A stretch of DNA of 64,000 nt from positions 9,933 to 73,932 of the forward strand of contig DASVFV010000116.1 in the NCBI GenBank assembly GCA_036379875.1, given 5' to 3'. The notes under the pieces are model-generated. The model had not been told where the DNA came from. It searched no databases and was given only the letters and a program-made list of their open reading frames with translations. The stretch is from Burkholderiales bacterium. GTDB taxonomy: Bacteria > Pseudomonadota > Gammaproteobacteria > Burkholderiales > SG8-39. Positions 23,973 through 37,279 of this stretch are shown here, piece after piece; the first letter of the stretch is position 1; each line of letters begins with the position of its first letter. The translations under genes were made by a program, and so were the position numbers.

Positions 23973-24376
23973 TGCGAGCAAGGCTCGCATTCATTGCAGC
24001 AATCCTCCTTGCAACACCGGCGCTGGCGCAATTCGCCAAAGTCACCGAGGGCGAGTCGCACATCGCCAGCGCGTTCACTTCCGGCGCCGATCCGAAGGTG
24101 CTGGCCGACGACGTGCGGCTCGGGCCGGTGCTGCGCCGCGAGCTGGGCGGCGCCGACGGCCGCAAGGTCTACGAGGCGCTGTTCGCGCGCGTGTCGGGCC
24201 GCACGCTCAAGGTCGACGTGCTGGCGCCCGCCGACGCGGCGCGCTACGCCAGGCTGGTCGGCAGCGCTGCGGAGCCGTTGATCCTGCTCGAGGCCGGCGA
24301 AGTGGCGCTTCTCCTGCAATACGCGCAAAGCGCGCAGCACGTCACGTTCGTCGAGCAGCTGCCGGTCAGGCGCTGA
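23972..24376 (+). CDS. hypothetical secreted protein
   Basis: The ATG overlaps the iclR stop (TGATG). The signal peptide is MRARLAFIAAILLATPALAQ. No family was recognised. Confidence 0.55.
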   Translation: MRARLAFIAAILLATPALAQFAKVTEGESHIASAFTSGADPKVLADDVRLGPVLRRELGGADGRKVYEALFARVSGRTLKVDVLAPADAARYARLVGSAAEPLILLEAGEVALLLQYAQSAQHVTFVEQLPVRR

Positions 24377-25349
24377 GCCCGTAGAGGGCGAAAAGTCCCC
24401 GCCGGTCGGTCCAGACGCGCGGTGCGGCGAAGCCGGCGCGCGCGGCCAGCTCCGCGAATCCGTCCAGCGAATACTTGTAGGAATTCTCGGTATGGATCGT
24501 CTCGCCGGCACGGAACTGCCAGCGATGGTTGCCCACGCGCACGCGCTGGGCCTGCAGCGCGACGAGGTGCATCTCGATGCGGCCCGCGGCCGGGTTGTAG
24601 AACGCGTAGTGGCGCCATTGGCGCAGGTCGAAGTCGGCGCCGAGCTCGCGATTGATGCGCGCCAGCACGTTCAGGTTGAACGCCGCGGTCACGCCGCGCG
24701 CGTCGTTGTACGCGGCGTGCAGCACGGCCGGGTCCTTCTTCAGGTCGACGCCCACCAGCATGCGCGCCGCGATGCCGCGCGACATGGCGAGGAAGCCGTG
24801 CGCCTCCTCCACCGTGAGGTTGCCGATCGTCGAGCCGGGGAAATAGACCACGCTGCCGCTGGCGCGCCGCACCGGCAGGTGCAGCGGCCGCGAGAAGTCG
24901 CCGAGCACCGGGCGGATCTTCAGGCGCGGGAACTCGCGCGCCAGGCGCTGCGCCGAGGCGTCGAGCGCGTCCTGCGAGATGTCGATCGGCACGTACGCGG
25001 CGGGCCGCACCGCGCGGATCAGCAGGCGGCTCTTGATGCCCTCGCCGCTGCCGTACTCGATCAACTGGCAGCCGCGCCCCGCGAAGCGCGCGATCGCGGC
25101 GAGGTGGCGGCGCGTGAGCGCGAGCTCGGCGCGCGTCAGGTAGTACTCGGGAAGGCGGCAGATGCGCGCGAACAGGCGGCTGCCCGCGGCATCGTAGAAG
25201 TACTTGGGCGGGAGGGCCTTCTGCGGCGCCGAAAGTCCCGCGACGACGTCGTCGCGAAACCTCGCTAGCTCGAGCGGCCTGGCGCCGCGCCGCTCTCGAG
25301 CCACTTTTTGATGCGGTTCGCGTCGCCGATCCGCGAGTGCTTGCCCCAC
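24366..25349 (-). CDS. EgtD-family SAM-dependent methyltransferase (L-histidine N-alpha-methyltransferase-like)
   Basis: The hallmark PPKYFYDAAGSRLFARICRLPEYYLTRAE is present, together with the methyltransferase core and ENSYKY. The start is uncertain. An alternative GTG at 25304 would shorten the overlap with the upstream gene. Confidence 0.75.
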   Translation of the reverse strand: MGQALADRRREPHQKVARERRGARPLELARFRDDVVAGLSAPQKALPPKYFYDAAGSRLFARICRLPEYYLTRAELALTRRHLAAIARFAGRGCQLIEYGSGEGIKSRLLIRAVRPAAYVPIDISQDALDASAQRLAREFPRLKIRPVLGDFSRPLHLPVRRASGSVVYFPGSTIGNLTVEEAHGFLAMSRGIAARMLVGVDLKKDPAVLHAAYNDARGVTAAFNLNVLARINRELGADFDLRQWRHYAFYNPAAGRIEMHLVALQAQRVRVGNHRWQFRAGETIHTENSYKYSLDGFAELAARAGFAAPRVWTDRRGLFALYGLSA

Positions 25350-26334: not shown

Positions 26335-28146
26335 CTACTTCGCGGTCGCGCTCTCGAGGACCTGCTGCGCCTCGGCCTGCTGTTGCTGCAGCGCCCACAT
26401 GCGCGCGTATTCGCCTTTCAGCTCAAGCAATTGCACGTGGCTACCGCGTTCCACGACGCGCCCGCGCGCGAGCACCAGGATCTGGTCCGCGTCCATGACG
26501 GTGGAGAGGCGGTGAGCGATCACCAACGTGGTGCGGCCCTGCGAGATGCGCTCGAGCTCGGCCTGGATCGCTTTCTCGGCGCGCGAGTCGAGCGCGGAGG
26601 TCGCCTCGTCGAAGATCAGGATGCGCGGGTTCTTGAGCAGCGCGCGCGCGATCGCGACGCGCTGCTTCTCTCCGCCGGAAAGCTTCAGCCCTCGCTCGCC
26701 GACCTGGCTTTCGTAGCCCTTCGGTAACGAGGTGATGAAATCGTGGACGTGCGCCGCGCGCGCCGCTTCGTGCACCTCTGCATCGCTCGCGTCGGGGCGG
26801 CCGTAGCGGATGTTGTAGAGGATGGTGTCGTTGAAGAGCACCGTGTCCTGCGGCACGATGCCGATCGCCGCGCGCACGCTCGCCTGCTTCGCGTCGCGAA
26901 TGTCGAGGCCGTTGATGCGGATCGCGCCGCCCGAAACGTCGTAGAAACGATAAAGCAGCCGCGCGAGCGTCGACTTCCCCGATCCCGAATGCCCGACTAC
27001 CGCGACGCGGTGGCCGGCGGGAATGCTGAACGTCACGTCGAACAGGATCTGGCGCGCCTTCTCGTAGCTGAAATCCACCTCCCGGAAAGCGACCTCGAGG
27101 GGCCCGTCGGGCAACGGCACGGCACCGGGCTTGTCCTCCACCTCGCGGTGCGCGGCGAGCAGGCCGAACATGCGGTCCATGTCGAGCAGCGACTGCTTGA
27201 TCTCGCGGTACACCATGCCGAGGAAGTTGAGCGGAATGTAGAGCTGGATGAGCAGCCCGTTCACCAGCACCAGGTCGCCGATCGTGAAGCTCTTCCTCGC
27301 CACGCCGTCGGCCACCAGCACCATGAGCGCGGTGACCGCGACCGCGATCACGCCGCTTTGCCCGATGTTCAGCACGCCGAGCGAGGCCTCGTTCTTGGTC
27401 GCCGCGTCCTCGTACTTGTGCAGCTGCTCGTCGTAGCGGCGCGCCTCGAAGTCCTCGTTGCCGAAATACTTGACCGTCTCGTAGTTGAGCAGGCTGTCGA
27501 TGGCGCGCGTGTTGGCGCGCGAGTCGAGCTCGTTGGCGCGGCGGCGGATCTCCATGCGCCACTCGGTGACGATCACGGTGAACGTGATGTAGACCGCCAC
27601 GGCGCCGAAGGTGATGGCGGCGAAGCGCCAGTCGAACTTCGCGATCAGCACCCCCGCGACCAATGCGAACTCGAGGATGACCGGCAATATGGAAAAAATT
27701 AGATACGAGAGAAGAGTGGAAATGCCCCGGGTGCCGCGCTCGATGTCGCGCGTCATGCCGCCGGTCTGGCGCTCGAGGTGGAAGCGCAGGCTCAGGCTGT
27801 GCAGGTGGCGGAACACCCCGAGCGCGACGCGCCGGATCGCGCGCTGCGTGACGCGGATGAACACCACGTCGCGCAGCTCCTGGAACAGCGTGGTGGAGAA
27901 GCGCAGCAGGCCGTAGATGGCGAGCAGCGCGAACGGCACCGCGACCACCTGCACGCTGGGGTCGAGGTTGTCGACCACCTGCTTCATGATGAGCGGCACG
28001 CCGACGTTCGCGAGCTTGGCCGTTATCAGGAAAATCAAGGCGATAACGACGCGCCACTTGTATTCCCAGAGGTAGGGAAGGAGGGTCGCCACCGCCTTCC
28101 ACTCGTTGCCCCGCAGGCGCTGCGTGGGGGCCGAGCTATGTGCCAT
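26335..28146 (-). CDS. ABC transporter permease/ATP-binding fusion (Atm1/HMT1-type exporter)
   Basis: 603 aa with an N-terminal 6-TM domain. The C-terminal NBD carries GHSGSGKST, LSGGEKQRVAIARA and ILIFDEATSALD. The N-terminal LLPYLWEYKWRV pattern is typical of the Atm1-like family. Confidence 0.85.
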   Translation of the reverse strand: MAHSSAPTQRLRGNEWKAVATLLPYLWEYKWRVVIALIFLITAKLANVGVPLIMKQVVDNLDPSVQVVAVPFALLAIYGLLRFSTTLFQELRDVVFIRVTQRAIRRVALGVFRHLHSLSLRFHLERQTGGMTRDIERGTRGISTLLSYLIFSILPVILEFALVAGVLIAKFDWRFAAITFGAVAVYITFTVIVTEWRMEIRRRANELDSRANTRAIDSLLNYETVKYFGNEDFEARRYDEQLHKYEDAATKNEASLGVLNIGQSGVIAVAVTALMVLVADGVARKSFTIGDLVLVNGLLIQLYIPLNFLGMVYREIKQSLLDMDRMFGLLAAHREVEDKPGAVPLPDGPLEVAFREVDFSYEKARQILFDVTFSIPAGHRVAVVGHSGSGKSTLARLLYRFYDVSGGAIRINGLDIRDAKQASVRAAIGIVPQDTVLFNDTILYNIRYGRPDASDAEVHEAARAAHVHDFITSLPKGYESQVGERGLKLSGGEKQRVAIARALLKNPRILIFDEATSALDSRAEKAIQAELERISQGRTTLVIAHRLSTVMDADQILVLARGRVVERGSHVQLLELKGEYARMWALQQQQAEAQQVLESATAK

Positions 28147-28222: not shown

Positions 28223-29095
28223 ATGGGCCTACGCCTCAAGTTCAACCTGGTGCTGCTCGTCGTATTCGTCACCGGCCTGGGCGTCACCGGCTACCTTTCC
28301 TACGAGCTGCTCCACCGCAATGCGCGCGAGGAGGTGCTGCGCAACGCCGGCGTGATGATGGAGGCGGCGCTATCCATGCGCACCTATACCGTCAGCCACG
28401 TGCGGCCGAAGCTCGCGGTCGACCCGGACAAGTTCCTGCCGGAGAGCGTGCCGGCGTTCGGCGCGACCGAGATCATGACGCTGCTGCGCAACAAGTACCC
28501 CGACTACGCCTACAAGGAAGCCGCGCTCAACCCCACCAATCCGCGCAACCGCGCGGTCGAATGGGAGAACGACATCCTCAACATTTTCCGCAGCGACCCC
28601 TCGCAAACCGAGATCTCCGGCGTGCGCGACACGCCGACGGGGCGCTCGCTCTATCTCGCTCGTCCGATGCAGGTCAAGGATCCCGCCTGCCTGTCCTGCC
28701 ACACCACCGCGGAGATGGCGCCGGCCTCGATGGTCAAGATCTACGGCGGGGCCAACGGCTTCGGCTGGAAGCTGAACGAGGTGGTCGCCGCGCAGATCGT
28801 GTCGGTGCCGATGAACCTGCCGATCCGCAACGCCAACCGCGCCTTCGTCACCTTCATGAGCTCGCTCGCGCTCGTGTTCGCGGTCCTGTTCGTCGCGCTC
28901 AACGTGATGCTCACGCTGCTCATCGTGCAGCCGATCACCCAGCTTTCCGAGGCCGCGGACCAGATCTCGCGCGGCAAGCTCGACATCGCCGAGCTGCCGA
29001 CCAAGGGCAAGGACGAGGTGTCGCAGCTCGGCCAGGCCTTCAACCGGATGCGCCGCAGCCTGGAGAAGGCCATCGCGCTGATCGACAAGGGGTGA
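28223..29095 (+). CDS. membrane sensor: TM - periplasmic CXXCH (DUF3365/Tll0287-like) domain - TM - HAMP, no output domain
   Basis: The ATG at 28223 follows GGGAG, in the frame of ORF 28106..29095. Two TM helices are present, plus a single haem-c motif CLSCH (28688-28702). A HAMP-like segment (PITQLSEAADQISRGKLDIAELPTKGKDEVSQLGQAFNRMRRSLEKAI) ends the protein. Confidence 0.75.
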   Translation: MGLRLKFNLVLLVVFVTGLGVTGYLSYELLHRNAREEVLRNAGVMMEAALSMRTYTVSHVRPKLAVDPDKFLPESVPAFGATEIMTLLRNKYPDYAYKEAALNPTNPRNRAVEWENDILNIFRSDPSQTEISGVRDTPTGRSLYLARPMQVKDPACLSCHTTAEMAPASMVKIYGGANGFGWKLNEVVAAQIVSVPMNLPIRNANRAFVTFMSSLALVFAVLFVALNVMLTLLIVQPITQLSEAADQISRGKLDIAELPTKGKDEVSQLGQAFNRMRRSLEKAIALIDKG

Positions 29096-29096
29096 C

Positions 29097-30482
29097 GTGG
29101 CCGCGAGCGCCCCGAATGCCCTTGCCGCGGGCCACGCGCTGCAGGAATACCGCATCGAGCGCGTGCTCGGCGTGGGCGGCTTCGGGCTGACCTACCTCGC
29201 GACCGACGCGAACCTCAACCTCAAGGTCGCGATCAAGGAATACCTGCCCGACGACATCGCCGCGCGCGGCGCCGACAATTCGATCACGCCGCGCTCGCCG
29301 GCCACCGCCGACACGTTCGACTGGGGCAAGCGGCGCTTTCTCGACGAGTCGCGCACCGTGGCGTCGTTCCGCCATCCGAACATCGTGCGCGTGATGCGCT
29401 TCTTCGAGGCGAACGGCACCGCCTACATGGTGATGGAATTCGTCGAGGGCGCGGCGCTTCCCGACTGGATGAAGGCGCACCGCCCGCTCGCGCAGGCGCA
29501 GGTCGCGGCGCTGATCGAGCCGCTGCTCGACGGGCTGGCGGTCGTGCACAAGGCCGGCTTCCTGCACCGCGACATCAAGCCGGGCAACATCTATGTGCGC
29601 GACGACGGCAGCCCGGTGCTGCTCGACTTCGGCTCGGCGCGCCAGCGCACCGGCGACCTCACCACCATCGTCTCGCCGGGCTTCGCGCCCTTCGAGCAGT
29701 ATCACGAGAAGGGCAACCAGGGGCCGTGGAGCGACATCTATGCGCTCGGCGGCGTGCTCTACTGGATGATCACCGGCCGCAAGCCGCACGATGCCGCGGC
29801 GCGCGTGCGCACCGACACCATGCCGAGCGCGCTGCAAATCGCGGACCGCGGGCTTTTCCGGCCGGAATTCCTTGCCGCCATCGACTGGGCGCTTGCCCCG
29901 CACGAGGAGCAGCGCCCGCAGTCGGTGGGCGAATGGCGCGAAGCCCTGGCGGGCACGGGCCTCGCGCACACCGTCCGGCCGCTCGACAGAGCCCCGCCGC
30001 CGAGCGCGATCGCCGCGGCGCCGGCCTTCGACCCGGCGCTCCTGAAGAACCTCGAAGCCGCGCTCGCCCAGCACCTCGGCCCGATCGCGGCGGTGGTGGT
30101 GAAGAGCGCCGCGAAGAAGGCCGCCAGCCAGGCCGAGCTCGTCCAGGCGCTCGCCGGCGAGATCCCCGAGCCCTCGGGCAAGGCCGCGTTCGAGAAGCAG
30201 TTTTTGGAGGTCTCGCGCCCGGGCAAGCAGCCCGCCAGCCAGCCGCGCAGCGATCCATCGACCTCGCTCGCGGCGGCGCGCTTCCCCCTGGAGGTGCTGG
30301 CCAAGGCGGAGGAGCGCCTGGCGCAGTACCTCGGCGCCGTGGCCCGGGTCGTGGTCAAGCGCGCCGCCCTGAAGGCGCGCGACGAGCGCGAGCTCTACCT
30401 CCTGCTCGCCGACGAGATCGAAGACAAAGACGAGAGGAAGGCTTTCGTACGCCAGGCGGTATCCATCTCCGGAAAGCCGTGA
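29097..30482 (+). CDS. Hanks-type serine/threonine protein kinase with tandem C-terminal repeat domain
   Basis: A GTG start lies 1 nt after the upstream TGA. Kinase motifs GVGGFG, VAIKEY, HRDIKPGNI and DFG are present. The C-terminus has two ~59-aa repeats (aa 311-369 and 396-454). No TM segment is present. Confidence 0.85.
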   Translation: MAASAPNALAAGHALQEYRIERVLGVGGFGLTYLATDANLNLKVAIKEYLPDDIAARGADNSITPRSPATADTFDWGKRRFLDESRTVASFRHPNIVRVMRFFEANGTAYMVMEFVEGAALPDWMKAHRPLAQAQVAALIEPLLDGLAVVHKAGFLHRDIKPGNIYVRDDGSPVLLDFGSARQRTGDLTTIVSPGFAPFEQYHEKGNQGPWSDIYALGGVLYWMITGRKPHDAAARVRTDTMPSALQIADRGLFRPEFLAAIDWALAPHEEQRPQSVGEWREALAGTGLAHTVRPLDRAPPPSAIAAAPAFDPALLKNLEAALAQHLGPIAAVVVKSAAKKAASQAELVQALAGEIPEPSGKAAFEKQFLEVSRPGKQPASQPRSDPSTSLAAARFPLEVLAKAEERLAQYLGAVARVVVKRAALKARDERELYLLLADEIEDKDERKAFVRQAVSISGKP

Positions 30483-30487
30483 TACAG

Positions 30488-30505
30488 TTCAAACGTTCGT
30501 TTGAA
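30488..30505. promoter_or_regulatory. perfect palindromic operator TTCAAACG-TT-CGTTTGAA (PsrA-type CAAAC-N4-GTTTG)
   Basis: An 8-2-8 perfect inverted repeat lies 20 nt upstream of the TetR-family gene ATG and is preceded by TACAGT. It matches the G/CAAAC(N2-4)GTTTG/C consensus I recall for PsrA-type fatty-acid-responsive TetR regulators. Confidence 0.55.
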
Positions 30506-30525
30506 TTGTTCTTCACGAGCTTTCC

Positions 30526-31182
30526 ATGTCCATCCGCCCGCTAAAACCCCAGCACGAAACCCGCACGCGCATCCTCGACGCTGCCGAGGAGCTGTTCATG
30601 CAGCACGGCTTCGAAGGCACGTCGATGCGCCACCTCACCTCGCGCGCCGGCGTCAACCTGGCCGCGGTCAATTACCACTTCGGCTCCAAGCACGCGCTCA
30701 TCGAGGCGGTGTTCCGCCGCCGCCTCGACCCGATGAATGCCGAGCGCATCGCGGCGCTCGAGCGGCTCGAAGAGGCCACGCCGGAAAACATCATCCGCGC
30801 CTTCGTCGCGCCGAGCCTGAGCCTGGTCGCGGACGCGAAGGGCGGGCGCAACTTCATCCGGCTGCTCGGCCGCACCTACAGCGAGCCGGCGAAGGAGATC
30901 CGCGCGCTGATCGGCCAGATGTACGCCCCGGCGATGGAGCGCTACAAGAGCGCGCTCAAGCGCGCGCTGCCGCAGATGCCCGAGGACGAGCTGGTCTGGC
31001 GCATGCATTTCATGTTCGGCACCCTCGCCTACACGCTCGCGGCCACCGACACCGTGCAGCTCATTGCCGGCTGCAAGCCGGAGGACCGCTACGACGCCGA
31101 GTTGCTGGAAGAGCGCCTCACCGCCTTCCTCGCCGCGGGGCTGCTCGCGCCGCTCAACTCCACGATCAAGAAAGCCGCCTAG
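30526..31182 (+). CDS. TetR/AcrR family transcriptional regulator (PsrA-like, inferred)
   Basis: 218 aa with the N-terminal HTH TRTRILDAAEELFMQHGFEGTSMRHLTSRAGVNLAAVNYHFGSK. It is the first gene of a beta-oxidation operon. Confidence 0.85.
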   Translation: MSIRPLKPQHETRTRILDAAEELFMQHGFEGTSMRHLTSRAGVNLAAVNYHFGSKHALIEAVFRRRLDPMNAERIAALERLEEATPENIIRAFVAPSLSLVADAKGGRNFIRLLGRTYSEPAKEIRALIGQMYAPAMERYKSALKRALPQMPEDELVWRMHFMFGTLAYTLAATDTVQLIAGCKPEDRYDAELLEERLTAFLAAGLLAPLNSTIKKAA

Positions 31183-31191
31183 GAGGTCCCC

Positions 31192-33669
31192 ATGGCCTGG
31201 TTCATCCCCGCCGTCCTCGCAGTGGTCCTCGTGCTCGGCTATCTCGGCGCGCGCATCTACTGGTGGACGCTCGCCGCCGCGCTGCTCGGCGCCTGCCTGA
31301 GCGTGCTCGCGGATTTCTCCGAGACGACCAACGTGGTGCTCGGCGCGATCTTCGTCGTGGTCGCCGCGGTCCTGAACATCGGATTCTTGAGAAGAACCTT
31401 CATCTCGAACTACATCCTCGCGGCGTATCGCCGCATCCTGCCCGACATGTCGCAGACCGAGAAGGAAGCGATCGACGCCGGCACGGTGTGGTGGGACGCG
31501 GATCTTTTTTCCGGCAAGCCCGACTGGGACAAGCTGCTGCGCACGCCCGAGCCGCGCCTCTCCGCGGAGGAGCAGGCGTTCCTCGACGGCCCGGTCGAGG
31601 AGCTGTGCCGGATGTGCAACGACTGGGAAATCACGCACGAGCGCCTCGACCTGCCGCCCCACGTGTGGCAGTTCATCAAGGACAAGGGCTTCCTCGGCAT
31701 GATCATCCCGAAGCAGTACGGCGGCCTGGGCTTCAGCGCGCTCGCGCACTCCGCGGTGGTGATGAAGCTCGCCACGCGCTCGAGCACCGCGGCGATCTCG
31801 GTGATGGTGCCGAACTCGCTCGGGCCGGGCGAGCTCTTGCTGCACTACGGCACCGAGCAGCAGAAGAACCATTACCTGCCGCGCCTCGCGAAAGGCCTGG
31901 AAGTGCCCTGCTTCGCGCTCACCAGCCCGGAGGCCGGCTCGGACGCCGCGTCCATCCCGGACTTCGGCGTGGTGTGCAAGGGCATTTGGCAGGGCAAGGA
32001 AGTGCTCGGCATGCGCGTCACCTGGGACAAGCGCTACATCACGCTCGGGCCGATTTCCACGCTGCTGGGTCTCGCTTTTCGTTTGTACGATCCTGAAAAA
32101 CTTCTCGGGGAAAAAACAGACCTCGGCATTACGTGCGCGCTCGTGCCCACGAGCACCCCGGGCGTGAACATCGGCCGGCGCCACCTGCCGCTCAACGCCG
32201 CGTTCCAGAACGGCCCGAACTGGGGCAAGGACGTGTTCATGCCGCTCGACTGGATCATCGGCGGCCCCGAGTACGCGGGCAAAGGCTGGATGATGCTGAT
32301 GGGCTGCCTCGCCGCCGGCCGCGCGATCTCGCTGCCCACGTCTTCCGTCGGTGGCGTCAAGGCGCTCACGCGCTACACCGGTGCCTACGCGCGCGTGCGC
32401 AGCCAGTTCAAGACCCCGATCGGCAAGCTCGAGGGCGTGGAAGAAGCGCTCGGCCGCATCGCCGCGCACTGCTACATGATGGACGCGACGCGCGTGATGA
32501 CCGCGGGCGCGGTCGACCTCGGCGAGAAGCCGGCGGTGCTCTCGGCGATCGCCAAGTACCACATGACCGAGCGGGCGCGCAGCTGCGTGAACGACGGCAT
32601 GGACATCCTCGGCGGTAAGGGCATCTGCCTCGGGCCGAACAACTGGATCGGGCGCGGCTACCAGATCGCGCCGGTCGCGATCACGGTCGAAGGCGCGAAC
32701 ATCCTGACGCGCACGCTGATCATCTTCGGCCAGGGCGCGATCCGCTGCCATCCCTACGTGCTGCGCGAGATGCGCGCGGCGAAGGAGATGCAGGGTGGCG
32801 AGGCGGCGCGCGAGTTCGACGACGCGTTCACCTCGCACATCGGCCACGTGCTGCGCAACGGCGTGCGCACGCTGGTCTACGGCCTGACGCGCGCGTCGTT
32901 CGCGCCGGTACCCGGCAACTGCGCCCCGGAAACGAAGCACTACTACCGCCACGTGTCGCGCCTCTCCGCCGCCTTCGCGTTCCTCGCCGACGTGTCGATG
33001 CTCGCCATGGGCGGAGCGCTCAAGCGCAAGGAGAAGATCTCCGGGCGCCTGGGCGACGTGCTGTCCATGCTCTATCTCGTCTCGGCCACGCTCAAGCGCT
33101 ACGAGGACCAGGGCCGCATCCGCGAGGACCTGCCGCTGGTGGGCTGGGCGGTGCGCGACGCGCTCTACCGCGCGCAGCAGGCGATCGACGGCATCCTGTC
33201 CAACTTCCCGGTGAAGGCGCTCGCCACGCTGCTGCGCTGGACCATCTTCCCGCTCGGCGCGACGTTCCGCCCGTCGCTCGACTCGCGTAACCGCGACTGC
33301 GCGAAGATCGCGCTCGAGCCGGGCGTGGCGCGCGACCGCCTCACCGCCGGCATGTACGTGCCGAAGGACGAATCGGACGTCACCGGCAAGCTGGAGGCCG
33401 CGTTCGTCGCCACCATCGCCTGCGAGCCGGTGGACGAGAAGATCCGCAAGGCGGTCAAGAAAGGAAAGATGGCGCCGCGGCCAGGTGTGGAGCTCGGGCT
33501 GATCGCCCGCGAAGCGGGCTTGATTTCACAAGATGAATATTCCCAGTGGAGCCGCAAGGAAGCGCTGCGCAAGGCGGTCATCAAGGTGGACGACTTCCCG
33601 CAGGACTTCGGTCGCGCCGAGATCGTCGAGTCGCTGTCCGAAAACACGGTGAAGATGAAGGCGGCCTGA
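31192..33669 (+). CDS. fadE: acyl-CoA dehydrogenase, large FadE type
   Basis: 825 aa with an AGGAGG SD. The N-terminal membrane segment, ACAD core and C-terminal extension match E. coli FadE-type architecture. Confidence 0.85.
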   Translation: MAWFIPAVLAVVLVLGYLGARIYWWTLAAALLGACLSVLADFSETTNVVLGAIFVVVAAVLNIGFLRRTFISNYILAAYRRILPDMSQTEKEAIDAGTVWWDADLFSGKPDWDKLLRTPEPRLSAEEQAFLDGPVEELCRMCNDWEITHERLDLPPHVWQFIKDKGFLGMIIPKQYGGLGFSALAHSAVVMKLATRSSTAAISVMVPNSLGPGELLLHYGTEQQKNHYLPRLAKGLEVPCFALTSPEAGSDAASIPDFGVVCKGIWQGKEVLGMRVTWDKRYITLGPISTLLGLAFRLYDPEKLLGEKTDLGITCALVPTSTPGVNIGRRHLPLNAAFQNGPNWGKDVFMPLDWIIGGPEYAGKGWMMLMGCLAAGRAISLPTSSVGGVKALTRYTGAYARVRSQFKTPIGKLEGVEEALGRIAAHCYMMDATRVMTAGAVDLGEKPAVLSAIAKYHMTERARSCVNDGMDILGGKGICLGPNNWIGRGYQIAPVAITVEGANILTRTLIIFGQGAIRCHPYVLREMRAAKEMQGGEAAREFDDAFTSHIGHVLRNGVRTLVYGLTRASFAPVPGNCAPETKHYYRHVSRLSAAFAFLADVSMLAMGGALKRKEKISGRLGDVLSMLYLVSATLKRYEDQGRIREDLPLVGWAVRDALYRAQQAIDGILSNFPVKALATLLRWTIFPLGATFRPSLDSRNRDCAKIALEPGVARDRLTAGMYVPKDESDVTGKLEAAFVATIACEPVDEKIRKAVKKGKMAPRPGVELGLIAREAGLISQDEYSQWSRKEALRKAVIKVDDFPQDFGRAEIVESLSENTVKMKAA

Positions 33670-33670
33670 C

Positions 33671-34969
33671 ATGCTGGCGAGACCGATCTACGTCATCGAC
33701 GGCGCGCGCACGCCGTTCCTGAAGTCGAAGAACCGTCCCGGCCCGTTCGCCGCCTCCGACCTCGCCACGCAGGCGGGGCGGGCATTGCTTGCCCGGCAAC
33801 GCTTTTCTCCAGATGAATTGGATGAAGTCATATTGGGCTGCGCCGCGCCGTCGGTGGATGAAGTGAACATCGGCCGCGTGGCGGCGCTGCGCATGGGCTG
33901 CGGCCAGAAAGTGCCGGCCTGGACCGTGATGCGCAACTGCGCCTCCGGCATGCAGGCCATCGACTCGGGCATCAACAACATCCTCGCCGGGCGCGCGAGC
34001 CTGGTGCTCGCCGGCGGCGTGGACGCGCTGTCGCGCGCGCCGCTCCTTTACGGCGACAAGATGGTGCTGTGGTTCTCCAACATGGCGGCCGCGCGCTCGG
34101 CCGGGCAGCGGCTCGCGCTTTTTTCCAGGCTGCCGGTCGCCTCGCTGCTGAACCCGGTGATCGGCATCATGAAGGGCCTGACCGACCCGATGGTGGGCCT
34201 GCTGATGGGCCAGACCGCCGAGAACGTGGCGCATCGCTTCGGCATCACGCGCGCGCAGATGGACGAGTTCTCGGTGCGCAGCCACGAGCGGGTGATCCGC
34301 GCGCAGGACCAGGGCACGCTCGCCGCGGGCGGCGGCGAGCTCGAGGCGCTCTACGACGCGAAGGGCAACGTGTACACGCTCGACGACGGGGTGCGGCGCG
34401 ACGCGTCGATGCAGAACCTCGCCAAGCTCAAGCCCTTCTTCGACCGCAAGTACGGCAACGTGACGCCCGGCAACAGCTCGCAGATCACCGACGGCGCCGC
34501 GTGGCTGATCCTCACCACCGAGGAAGTGGTGCGCAAGAACAACCTCCAGCCGCTCGGCCGCATCGTCGACTCGGAGTGGGCGGGGCTCGACCCGGCGCAC
34601 ATGGGCCTCGGACCGGTGCACGCCGCTACGCCGATCCTGAAGCGCAACCGGCTCGCGCTGAACGACGTGGACTACTGGGAGATCAACGAGGCGTTCGCCG
34701 CGCAGGTGCTCGGCTGCCTCGCGGCGTGGAAGGACGAGAAGTACTGCCGCGAGGAATTGGGCCTGGATAAGGCCTTAGGTTCTCTTGATGAAAATCGTCT
34801 TAACGTGGACGGCGGTGCGATTGCCCTTGGCCATCCGGTCGGCGCTTCCGGCGCGCGCATCGTCCTGCACCTGTTGAAAGTCCTGAAAAGAAACAAAGCC
34901 AGGCGCGGCATCGCGTCGATCTGCATCGGCGGCGGGCTGGGCGGCGCGATGCTCCTGGAGGCGGCCTGA
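33671..34969 (+). CDS. acetyl-CoA C-acyltransferase (thiolase, FadI/FadA-like)
   Basis: 432 aa with the active-site regions NCASGMQA, GHPVGASG and CIGGGLG. Confidence 0.85.
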   Translation: MLARPIYVIDGARTPFLKSKNRPGPFAASDLATQAGRALLARQRFSPDELDEVILGCAAPSVDEVNIGRVAALRMGCGQKVPAWTVMRNCASGMQAIDSGINNILAGRASLVLAGGVDALSRAPLLYGDKMVLWFSNMAAARSAGQRLALFSRLPVASLLNPVIGIMKGLTDPMVGLLMGQTAENVAHRFGITRAQMDEFSVRSHERVIRAQDQGTLAAGGGELEALYDAKGNVYTLDDGVRRDASMQNLAKLKPFFDRKYGNVTPGNSSQITDGAAWLILTTEEVVRKNNLQPLGRIVDSEWAGLDPAHMGLGPVHAATPILKRNRLALNDVDYWEINEAFAAQVLGCLAAWKDEKYCREELGLDKALGSLDENRLNVDGGAIALGHPVGASGARIVLHLLKVLKRNKARRGIASICIGGGLGGAMLLEAA

Positions 34970-36909
34970 TGGAACGCGCCGGGAGCAGGGTCCTCGCCAG
35001 GCACTGGCGCTGGGAGATGGACCGCGAAGGGCTGGCCTGGCTGACCTTCGACAAGCAGGGCGAGTCGACCAACACTTTCTCGCGCGAGGCGCTGGAAGAG
35101 CTCTGGCTAATGCTCGACCAGATCGGCGCGGAAAAGCCGAAGGGCCTCGTGATCCGCTCGGCCAAGGACAGCTTCATCGGCGGCGCCGACATCCAGGAGT
35201 TCGCCAACTTCAAGGGCCCGGAAGACGCGATCGCGTTCACCCGGCTCGGCTGGGACACCTTCCAGAAGCTGCACGACCTGCCCTTCCCCACCACCGCGAT
35301 GGTGAACGGCTTCTGCATGGGCGGCGGCATGGAGATGGCGCTCGCGTGCCGGTACATCGTCGCGCTGGACGATCCCAAGACGCGCTTCGCGCAGCCCGAG
35401 GTGATGGTCGGCGTGATCCCGGCCTGGCACGCGATGGAGTGGCTGCCCGAGCGCGTCGGCCCGGCGGCGGCGCTGGATCTCCTCCTCACCGGCAAGACCA
35501 TCGATGCCAGGCGCGCCAAGCGCATGGGCCTCGCCGACCAGGCCGTGCCGCTGCGCATCTTCGAAAACACCGCGCGCATGGTGACGCTCGAGGCGCCGAA
35601 GCGCAGGTCCTTGCCTTTCGTTCAGCGAGTTCTCCTGAAAATGAAAGGCATAGTGGCTTCCCAAGCGAGAAAACAGGTGGCGCGCAAGGCGAAGCCCGAG
35701 CACTATCCGGTGCCCTACGCGATCATCGACATCTGGAAGAACTTCGGCGGCAACGCGCTCGCGGTGCCGGCCGAGCACCCGTCCTCGATCCAGAACCTGA
35801 TCCAGCATCCGACCGGCCGCAACCTGGTGCGCATCTTCTTCCTGCAGGACCGGCTGAAGGGCCTGGGCAAAGGGTCCGACTTCAGGGCGCGCCACGTGCA
35901 CGTGGTCGGCGCGGGCGTGATGGGCGGCGACATCGCGGCGATCTGCGCGATGCGCGGCCTGCGCGTCACGCTGCAGGACACCGCGCCGGAGCGCATCGCG
36001 CCGGCGGTGAAGCGCGCCGCCGAGCTGTTCAAGCGAAGAATTCGTGACAAGGCGCGCGAGCGCGACGCGCTCGATCGCCTGATTCCCGACGTGACCGGCG
36101 ACGGCGCGCGCCAGGCCGACGTGATCATCGAGGCGATCTTCGAGAACCTGGACGCAAAGCGCTCCCTCTTTTCAAAACTGGAGGGACTTGCAAAACCGCA
36201 GGCGATCCTGGCCACCAATACGTCCAGCCTCAAGCTCGCCGACATCGCCACCGCGCTCAAGGATCCGTCGCGCCTGGTCGGCATCCATTTCTTCAACCCG
36301 GTGCCGCTGCTGCAGCTCGTCGAAGTTGTTTCTTCGGAAAAGACAAACCCTGAATTCGCGAAAAAAGCCGCGGCGTTCGTGCGCCAGATCGACAAGCTGC
36401 CGCTGCCGGTGAAGGACGCGCCGGGCTTCCTGGTGAACCGCGTGCTCGGCCCGTACATGCTGAACGCGTTTCGCATGCTGGACGAGGGCCGCAAGCCCGA
36501 GACGCTCGACCGCGCGATGGAGGATTTCGGCATGCCGATGGGGCCGGCCGAGCTCGCCGACACCGTCGGCCTCGACATCTGCCTGCACGCCGGCAAGGCG
36601 CTTGCCAGGGGCGCGACCGAGGTTCCGGAGATCCTCGCCAGCAAGGTCGCGCTCGGCCACCTCGGCAAGAAGACTGGCCAGGGCATCTACAAGTACGTGG
36701 ACGGCAAGCCGCAGAAGGGCGAGCCCGATCCCTACGACCAGGCGCTGGTCGATGCGCTGATCGAGCCGTACCTGCACGAGGCGCAAGCCGCGCTCGCCGA
36801 CGGCGTGGTCGCGGATGCCGACCTGGTCGACGCCGGCCTGATCTTCGGAACCGGCTTCGCGCCGTTCCGCGGCGGGCCGCTACACTACTTGGGTGGAAAG
36901 ACTTCCTGA
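34969..36909 (+). CDS. bifunctional enoyl-CoA hydratase / 3-hydroxyacyl-CoA dehydrogenase (FadB/FadJ-like)
   Basis: The N-terminal crotonase domain carries FCMGGGMEMALACRY. The central NAD-binding region is VVGAGVMGGDIA, and an HCDH C-terminal domain follows. The ATG overlaps the thiolase stop. Confidence 0.85.
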   Translation: MERAGSRVLARHWRWEMDREGLAWLTFDKQGESTNTFSREALEELWLMLDQIGAEKPKGLVIRSAKDSFIGGADIQEFANFKGPEDAIAFTRLGWDTFQKLHDLPFPTTAMVNGFCMGGGMEMALACRYIVALDDPKTRFAQPEVMVGVIPAWHAMEWLPERVGPAAALDLLLTGKTIDARRAKRMGLADQAVPLRIFENTARMVTLEAPKRRSLPFVQRVLLKMKGIVASQARKQVARKAKPEHYPVPYAIIDIWKNFGGNALAVPAEHPSSIQNLIQHPTGRNLVRIFFLQDRLKGLGKGSDFRARHVHVVGAGVMGGDIAAICAMRGLRVTLQDTAPERIAPAVKRAAELFKRRIRDKARERDALDRLIPDVTGDGARQADVIIEAIFENLDAKRSLFSKLEGLAKPQAILATNTSSLKLADIATALKDPSRLVGIHFFNPVPLLQLVEVVSSEKTNPEFAKKAAAFVRQIDKLPLPVKDAPGFLVNRVLGPYMLNAFRMLDEGRKPETLDRAMEDFGMPMGPAELADTVGLDICLHAGKALARGATEVPEILASKVALGHLGKKTGQGIYKYVDGKPQKGEPDPYDQALVDALIEPYLHEAQAALADGVVADADLVDAGLIFGTGFAPFRGGPLHYLGGKTS

Positions 36910-37279
36910 GGGAAAGGTCCCGGCGCTGCGCGTCATGCCGATGCCGGCGGACGCCAACCAGAACGGCGACATCTTCGGCGGCTGGATCATGGCGCAGGTC
37001 GACATCGCGGGCGGCAGCGCGGCCGGCCGCATCGCGCGCGGCCGCGTCGCCACCGTGGCGGTGAAGGAGTTCGTGTTCAAGCAGCCGGTGCAGATCGGCG
37101 ACCTGCTGTCCTTCTACGTCGACCTGGTGCGCATCGGCAAGACCTCGATCACGGTCAACGTGGAAGTGTTCGCCGAGCGCCGGCCCGACGAGCCGAAAGT
37201 GGTGAAGGTCACGGAGGCCACGCTCACCTACGTGGCGATCGACCGCGACGGGCGCCCGCGCCCGGTGCCGCGCCCCTAG
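36893..37279 (+). CDS. acyl-CoA thioesterase (YciA-like hotdog fold)
   Basis: 128 aa with a GTG start. The motif ANQNGDIFGGWIMAQVDIAG is typical of the YciA family. Confidence 0.8.
   Translation: MERLPEGKVPALRVMPMPADANQNGDIFGGWIMAQVDIAGGSAAGRIARGRVATVAVKEFVFKQPVQIGDLLSFYVDLVRIGKTSITVNVEVFAERRPDEPKVVKVTEATLTYVAIDRDGRPRPVPRP

Follow-up and report, generated by a model that had tools for sequence, protein, structure and literature searches.

The DNA considered here is a 64,000-nucleotide stretch (hereafter the window; G+C content 67.5%) of a Burkholderiales assembly (GCA_036379875.1, contig DASVFV010000116.1, positions 9,933 to 73,932), and it contains a pair of adjacent genes at 28223-30482 on the plus strand, which probably form an operon encoding a transmembrane receptor kinase split into two proteins. 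The first gene encodes a membrane receptor that combines a periplasmic c-type haem domain with a HAMP domain and then stops, and the second encodes a soluble Hanks Ser/Thr kinase. We assign the pair to the CHH-STPK type, that is, a Cache_haem-HAMP (CHH) receptor associated with a Ser/Thr protein kinase (STPK), on the basis of what was observed in this analysis: domain content, topology, haem motif, C-terminal repeats in the kinase, coupling of the two genes in an operon and recurrence of the pairing in related genomes. Haem loading, nitric oxide (NO) binding, nanomolar 2:1 docking and NO-enhanced phosphorylation would follow by homology with a pair studied in Pseudomonas azotoformans (10.64898/2026.05.25.727664). 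A preliminary description of this locus had already proposed a split receptor kinase, an idea that is supported by our analysis and has been shown experimentally for the homologous P. azotoformans pair (10.64898/2026.05.25.727664). A split NO receptor kinase of this kind has been described in two 2026 preprints, and what is new here is a member from the beta-proteobacteria in which the kinase is of another clade, a phosphatase gene is absent and the phosphorylation site is not conserved.

The first of these preprints redefined DUF3365 as a haem-c Cache domain named sCache_haem, a family in which the CXXCH motif is conserved in at least 99% of members and whose members fused to signalling modules act as NO sensors; a transmembrane (TM)-HAMP representative from P. 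azotoformans, which lacks the axial Cys, releases NO slowly (10.64898/2026.02.01.703092). The second (bioRxiv 10.64898/2026.05.25.727664, 28 May 2026) introduced CHH receptors, which are Cache_haem-HAMP proteins with an uncoupled HAMP, and studied the P. azotoformans pair by pull-down, biolayer interferometry, size-exclusion chromatography with multi-angle light scattering, cryo-electron microscopy (cryo-EM), 32P assays and mass spectrometry. A Ser/Thr kinase gene almost always adjoins these receptors, joined in some species by a PP2C phosphatase gene, and in P. azotoformans the kinase binds its receptor with nanomolar affinity, independently of ATP and at a ratio of two receptors to one kinase (10.64898/2026.05.25.727664). 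The 3.47 Å cryo-EM map (the entries of this system are 35YX and 35YV) shows a heterotrimer made of a receptor dimer and one kinase, whose two pseudo-symmetric C-terminal helical bundles each contact one HAMP subunit through a conserved helix (IGPLARFLVRKSLN or IGPIARIVVSRALR), and NO binding raises phosphorylation of Thr256 in HAMP (10.64898/2026.05.25.727664).

The receptor

The receptor gene (28223..29095, plus strand) runs from an ATG at 28223, preceded by an AGGGAG Shine-Dalgarno sequence some 8 nucleotides upstream, to a TGA at 29093-29095, and its 290-residue product is 100% identical to HEX7219577.1 from an uncultured Burkholderiales metagenome-assembled genome (MAG). Hydropathy analysis locates two hydrophobic segments (at about residues 7-27 and 205-235), and Pfam assigns residues 32-196 to the Tll0287-like family (PF11845, E 1.2e-37) and residues 230-281, encoded at 28910..29065, to HAMP (PF00672, E 5.3e-14), after which only nine residues remain. 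Two TM helices thus flank a periplasmic sCache_haem (Tll0287-like/DUF3365) sensor, and the protein ends just past its cytoplasmic HAMP. This is the architecture that the preliminary description had read from the open reading frame (ORF), including the early stop and the missing output domain, and both sequence and Pfam confirm it.

The receptor contains a single CXXCH, the CLSCH haem-c attachment motif at residues 156-160 (28688..28702, plus strand), in which C156, C159 and H160 are invariant across 57 diverse CHH representatives. Since C156 and C159 are its only cysteines, the receptor lacks a distal Cys ligand and belongs with the axial-Cys-free 'Cluster 2 / Target 2' signalling type. Its HAMP domain comprises a first amphipathic segment (AS1) up to about residue 249, a connector (residues 250-264) and a second segment (AS2, residues 265-289), with near-invariant S249, G251, E265, L269, R275 and S279 in the same 57 representatives.

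An AlphaFold2 model built from an alignment of 57 diverse homologues has a mean pLDDT (predicted local distance difference test) of 95.3 and two long helices (residues 3-63 and 198-249). In the model TM1 runs into the long N-terminal helix, an alpha/beta core follows with CXXCH on a short helix, and TM2 is continuous with AS1 of HAMP, which leads through the connector to AS2. When compared with the Protein Data Bank (PDB) by Foldseek, this model retrieves Tll0287 (5B82, E 6e-8, TMt 0.74), a WalK-type sCache-TM-HAMP model (TMq 0.68) and Af1503 HAMP domains; PDB matches to HAMP proteins and the AlphaFold2 helices agree with the Pfam assignment of that domain. The earlier suggestion of a DUF3365/Tll0287-type haem sensor is therefore borne out by both hidden Markov models (PF11845 and PF00672) and fold. 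By homology with the P. azotoformans protein, the receptor would be expected to carry covalently bound haem and to bind NO with a slow off-rate.

The kinase and its probable docking repeats

A single base (C 29096) separates the stop codon of the receptor from the GTG at 29097 that opens the kinase gene (29097..30482, plus strand), and an AAGGGG Shine-Dalgarno sequence, 7-12 nucleotides 5' of this GTG, lies within the end of the receptor ORF, so that the whole coupling junction spans 29084..29099. On three other contigs with an identical sensor, gene callers gave the same 461-residue kinase with the same start and the same 1-nucleotide gap, and the next in-frame start after 29097 would remove kinase subdomain I. 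An exact look-up of the kinase product returned no record, the identical kinase being found through these receptor-identical contigs. A promoter/terminator scan detected no terminator, and the one promoter-like site that it gave is weak and lies on the minus strand.

The kinase matches Pkinase (PF00069, E 2.8e-34), and its catalytic domain (residues 1 to about 290; 29097..29966), modelled by AlphaFold2 with a kinase fold, keeps all catalytic motifs intact, that is, GVGGFG, VAIKEY (K47), HRDIKPGN (HRD159, N164) and DFG (177-179), as had been noted before together with the GTG start. The closest solved structure in a PDB sequence search is PpkA (5HNV, E 9.6e-64, 40% identity), ahead of PknB (about 1e-20), which places the domain in a PpkA-like clade. 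There is no hydrophobic segment above threshold in the hydropathy profile, hence no TM helix, and there is no PASTA domain. The preliminary description had seen in this protein a kinase with neither TM segment nor sensor, of which the first part holds, but the kinase is not input-less, for it carries two DUF8082 repeats at its C-terminus.

These repeats are apparent from the kinase itself, in which residues ~305-370 and 390-461 match each other (45% identity over 62 residues, E 1e-12). Repeat 1 (residues ~313-373; 30033..30215, plus strand) contains the predicted HAMP-contact helix LGPIAAVVVKSAAK, and repeat 2 (residues ~390-458; 30264..30470, plus strand) the predicted HAMP-contact helix LGAVARVVVKRAAL. 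AlphaFold2 models both as confident helical modules (pLDDT ~88-91 and 86-95, respectively), with low-confidence linkers between the kinase domain and repeat 1 (residues 298-307) and between the two repeats (residues 377-391). The assignment to DUF8082 is based on precomputed annotation of the kinase tail as PF26309 on sequence-identical contigs and on a repeat HMM built in this analysis; direct Pfam scans of the tail gave no match with a Pfam copy scanned without PF26309, and searching PDB sequences with just the tail returned noise only. The helix of repeat 1 aligns with IGPLARFLVRKSLN of the Pseudomonas kinase, and that of repeat 2 with IGPIARIIVSRALR, i.e. IGPIARI(V/I)VSRALR. By analogy with the homologue, in which it docks on HAMP, this C-terminal two-repeat module is the input element of the kinase.

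Conservation in related genomes

A library-wide HMMER search with the receptor retrieved 488 cluster representatives at E <= 1e-30, many of which are about 290 residues long and 36-66% identical to it. Longer representatives carry fused outputs, including HAMP-GAF-histidine kinase (HK), hybrid HK, GGDEF, SpoIIE with HATPase_c_2, TIR and, in one case, a direct fusion to Pkinase. The best 120 database homologues of the receptor are all 289-290 residues long.

For gene neighbourhoods, a related-locus scan with a 14-sequence alignment and one genome per species yielded 80 loci with receptors 52-83% identical, mostly from Betaproteobacteria (among them Accumulibacter, Zoogloea, Thiobacillus, Methyloversatilis, Polaromonas, Ramlibacter, Rhodoferax and Usitatibacter), with a few from Thiothrix, Myxococcota and other groups. 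Every one of the 79 complete receptors ends at 288-296 residues and none is fused to an output; these were the fused orthologues whose existence, according to the preliminary description, would have spoken for an assembly frameshift. That description had also named beforehand, as a test of the pairing, its conservation in related genomes, and this test was passed. When the count is restricted to the 71 loci with at least 1.5 kb of downstream sequence, a DUF8082 partner lies directly downstream of the receptor in 63 (61 found by script, plus L021 and L080, where it lies beyond the distance filter) and upstream or convergent in three more, giving 66 of 71 with an adjacent partner. Counted from the stop codon of the receptor, the first start codon available to the partner is a median of 18 nucleotides away, the extremes being a 110-nucleotide overlap and a 375-nucleotide gap. 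The receptor-kinase arrangement recurs on independent contigs and across genera, and the adjacency is not due to chance.

Four loci (L018, L019, L022 and L035) have no recognisable DUF8082, kinase or cyclase neighbour, the neighbouring ORFs being mostly without Pfam match, and their receptors, which are 294-295 residues long, form a subclade with an insertion in the HAMP connector (GRTSSA...). At four other loci (L004, L009, L011 and L020), one or two extra PpkA-like kinase paralogues, which are 49-53% identical to the window kinase and have no DUF8082, are found just upstream of the receptor; the kinase downstream of the same receptors bears DUF8082 in L009, L011 and L020, and is cut by the contig end in L004.

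Comparison with the P. azotoformans pair

The natural yardstick for the window pair is the P. azotoformans system, whose kinase we identified by rebuilding its catalytic domain from the supplementary alignment, the 90% cluster of this domain containing AMN80074. The two receptors (290 residues in the window, 292 for the one beside AMN80074) are 45% identical over their full length, and both have CXXCH and lack the axial Cys. In both cases a soluble Hanks kinase is encoded directly downstream, with a flexible linker and two DUF8082 repeats that contain an [IL]G[PA]hA..hV helix, and the window kinase is colinear, both repeats included, with P0271 from strain HN11, the member of the 90% cluster of AMN80074 against which kinase identity was computed.

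Several points nonetheless weigh against placing the window pair in this system. The supporting work consists of two unreviewed preprints from one collaboration. The window kinase shares only 29% identity overall with the HN11 kinase P0271, and its predicted contact helices match the Pseudomonas ones at only 4 and 7 of 14 residues. Its catalytic domain falls in a different Hanks clade, since that of AMN80074 is PknB-like (E 4e-59, PpkA not being among the top 60) and that of the window is PpkA-like, although the PknB-like clade describes the system rather than defining it, and kinases of both clades adjoin CHH receptors. The mapped phosphorylation site, Thr256 (SLGETDVPP), aligns with Leu253 (SRGKLDIAE) in the window receptor, and this position is mostly L/F/M in the 80 related receptors, whatever the partner type. 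A PP2C gene follows the kinase in Pseudomonas, and loci L081 and L085 have receptor (292 residues), kinase (Pkinase and DUF8082) and PP2C in that order, whereas blastp with the PP2C of L081 found none in the operon or elsewhere in the window, nor beside the receptors of surveyed loci L001-L080. Finally, no genes for NO metabolism or denitrification occur among the ORFs scanned from ~17 kb upstream to ~19 kb downstream of the pair. In contrast to the P. azotoformans proteins, the window pair comes from an uncultured Burkholderiales MAG.

As Thr256 is replaced by Leu253, the phospho-acceptor at this locus may be T260 in the connector, the near-invariant S249 or a separate substrate, and the real output is probably something other than phosphorylation at the mapped position.

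Proposed mechanism and alternatives

In the mechanism that we favour, the receptor would insert with its N-terminus inside the cell and dimerise, with c-haem covalently attached to C156/C159 in the periplasmic Cache-fold domain and H160 as proximal ligand. Because there is no distal Cys, the sixth coordination site of the haem would be open to a small ligand, most likely NO. The cytoplasmic end of the receptor would be a bare HAMP four-helix bundle, on which one kinase would dock permanently via its two DUF8082 repeats, one per HAMP subunit, while a flexible linker would keep its catalytic domain tethered. On binding of the ligand at the periplasmic side, the conformation of HAMP would then shift and alter the choice of targets that the tethered kinase phosphorylates.

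The mechanism is least certain as regards its ligand. With the same architecture, the kinase could relay a signal other than NO, be it the redox state of the periplasm or a different ligand such as O2, CO, sulfide or nitrite, and we consider this alternative unlikely, yet the most serious one. The authors of the CHH preprint themselves allow for another haem ligand (10.64898/2026.05.25.727664), the stand-alone members Tll0287 and a P. putida protein behave as redox proteins, and no denitrification or NO-detoxification genes are present within ~15 kb of the pair in the window. On the other hand, redox-type members have an axial Cys that is missing from the window receptor, which is similar to Target 2, a protein that binds NO, and in the homologue oxidation or reduction altered phosphorylation far less than NO did, while O2 merely autoxidised the haem. 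Haem-based sensing (redox or gas) had initially been envisaged for this locus; in the homologue it is NO that is preferred, and not redox state as such.

It is far less probable that the receptor serves solely to anchor the kinase at the membrane or as a substrate, with HAMP as a passive docking site and a kinase controlled by other means. Such a role would agree with three features, namely (i) the independence of binding from ATP and ligand state in the homologue, (ii) the flexible tethering of its catalytic domain, which is invisible in the cryo-EM map, and (iii) the absence of the mapped phosphorylation site from the window receptor. It is difficult to reconcile with the strong conservation of the haem motif and of the HAMP signature residues, with the fusion via HAMP of closely related sensor domains to classical outputs (HK, GGDEF and SpoIIE), and with the effect of NO in the homologue, where its presence on the periplasmic side changed cytoplasmic phosphorylation. 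That the pair is a fused gene split by an assembly frameshift (the 1-nucleotide gap and the differing reading frames could come from an indel, and in one database protein, P0189, Cache_haem is joined without intervening HAMP to a PpkA-like kinase domain) or merely two unrelated neighbours is ruled out by the survey of related loci, in which all 79 complete receptors stop short of any output, spacing to the partner is variable and the partner is kept in 66 of 71 cases, as well as by the uniform length of the best 120 homologues and the identical gene calls on three other contigs, P0189 being a singleton without HAMP and repeats.

A split receptor kinase with a periplasmic NO sensor, our preferred reading, would extend just-described periplasmic NO sensing (a c-haem Cache receptor, a bare HAMP and a docked Ser/Thr kinase) by carrying the system into uncultured Burkholderiales and pairing it with a different kinase clade. 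Many members of Accumulibacter, Zoogloea, Thiobacillus, Polaromonas and Ramlibacter, which feature among the related loci, denitrify and make NO in the periplasm.

Partner classes and a possible adaptor

A manual count over the surveyed loci distinguishes four classes of partners for CHH receptors: (i) PpkA-like kinases with two repeats, as in the window (15 loci), (ii) PknB-like kinases with repeats (~23 loci), (iii) PpkA-like kinases fused to a class III cyclase domain and repeats, ~700-770 residues in length (15 loci) and (iv) class III cyclase domains with repeats and no kinase, usually ~360-400 residues long, with longer three-repeat forms in two Myxococcota-type loci (~11 loci). The partner cyclase domains keep the signature blocks FxDIxxYS, DTGDG, RIGINxGPV and GDGINxAQRVMS. 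Neither cyclase partners nor DUF8082 are named in the main text of either preprint (10.64898/2026.02.01.703092; 10.64898/2026.05.25.727664).

The presence of DUF8082 repeats on cyclases as well as on kinases suggests that the two-repeat module is a portable HAMP-docking adaptor, through which output-less CHH receptors could plug in interchangeable outputs. With the only mapped phosphorylation site not conserved, the shared output would in that case be the recruitment of the docked enzyme, whichever it is, and its HAMP-gated activity, and not phosphorylation of the receptor at Thr256. Such a general adaptor for trans-acting HAMP outputs, which the survey suggests and does not prove, seems to us about evenly balanced between right and wrong.

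Proteins of ~360-390 residues in which an N-terminal class III adenylate/guanylate cyclase domain precedes two DUF8082 repeats, and which have no kinase domain, are encoded directly downstream of receptors at L017:6881-7975, L024:1660-2790, L025:6505-7629, L030:1708-2808, L041:4908-6068, L046:6889-7974 and L064:6896-7972. The kinase-cyclase-DUF8082 fusions are those of L034, L036, L037 (6863-9004, with cyclase homology at residues 426-483), L039, L040, L043-L045, L048, L049, L051, L053, L059, L069 and L075. At the Myxococcota-type loci (L052:6905-8653 and L063:6904-8598), the partner is a protein of 565-583 residues with three DUF8082 repeats, no Pfam match and a weak match (33%) to the cyclase query, and a separate kinase is encoded just downstream on the opposite strand.

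Three proteins depart from these arrangements. P0189 (588 residues) consists of Cache_haem, TM2, a Pro/Ala-rich linker and a PpkA-like kinase domain 51% identical to that of the window, and has neither HAMP nor DUF8082, which fits a docking role of HAMP and the repeats; it is a singleton on a 1,992-nucleotide Logan contig and could be an assembly artefact. P0251 (462 residues) combines an N-terminal TIR with a Tll0287-like domain, and P0205 (647 residues) a Tll0287-like domain with TPR and pentapeptide repeats.

Relationship to other known systems

Tll0287 (PDB 5B82) and other stand-alone sCache_haem proteins share with the window receptor the Pfam family, the fold and a CXXCH in a helical insertion. 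Tll0287, however, is a soluble single domain whose haem has His/Cys ligation and for which a redox role has been proposed, while the window protein has two TM helices and a HAMP and is devoid of a Cys ligand. In fused sCache_haem receptors (HAMP-GAF-HisKA-HATPase, hybrid HK, GGDEF and SpoIIE), the sensor domain is closely related (40-60% identical) and the membrane topology is the same, but the output resides in the same chain, whereas that of the window receptor is a separate protein, which, judging from the homologous Pseudomonas pair, would be bound without a covalent link.

A role of the window kinase in the type VI secretion system (T6SS) was considered because of the match of its catalytic domain to PpkA (5HNV), the T6SS threonine-phosphorylation kinase. 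PpkA spans the membrane itself, has a periplasmic vWA domain and belongs to T6SS clusters, where its partners are Fha1 and PppA. The resemblance is limited to the catalytic domain, since the window kinase has no TM helix and there are no T6SS, FHA or PP2C genes among the ORFs scanned over the same ~17 kb upstream and ~19 kb downstream, and this pathway was rejected on both architecture and context. With no NO, denitrification, FHA, PP2C or T6SS genes nearby, the pair looks like a self-contained two-gene unit.

A parallel is offered by the H-NOX/HnoK and NosP/NahK operons, in which a haem NO sensor is likewise encoded beside a separate kinase gene and exerts its control in trans. The sensors of these operons bind b-haem, reside in the cytoplasm and act on histidine kinases, in contrast to the window system, where a periplasmic c-haem would act across the membrane, via HAMP, on a Hanks Ser/Thr kinase.

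Surroundings of the pair in the window

Upstream of the receptor gene, and divergent from it, lies a gene for an ABC exporter (26335-28146, minus strand), beyond which are found genes for a D-Ala-D-Ala carboxypeptidase, a histidine-specific methyltransferase and an IclR regulator. The methyltransferase is S-adenosylmethionine-dependent (24366-25349, minus strand; Methyltransf_33, E 9e-109) and we take it to be EgtD-like; no sulfoxide-synthase partner was seen among its annotated neighbours.

Downstream of the kinase gene, a TetR regulator (TetR_C_30; 30526-31182) opens a series of genes at 30526-37279 that also encode an 825-residue FadE-type acyl-CoA dehydrogenase, a thiolase, a 3-hydroxyacyl-CoA dehydrogenase/enoyl-CoA hydratase fusion and a 4HBT thioesterase, a compact beta-oxidation operon that is unrelated to the receptor-kinase pair. 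In the short interval that separates the kinase stop (30482) from the TetR start (30526), a 12-nucleotide inverted repeat, ACAGTTCAAACG-tt-CGTTTGAATTGT (30484-30509), is probably the operator of this regulator of fatty-acid beta-oxidation, and its CAAAC..GTTTG core resembles PsrA-type sites.

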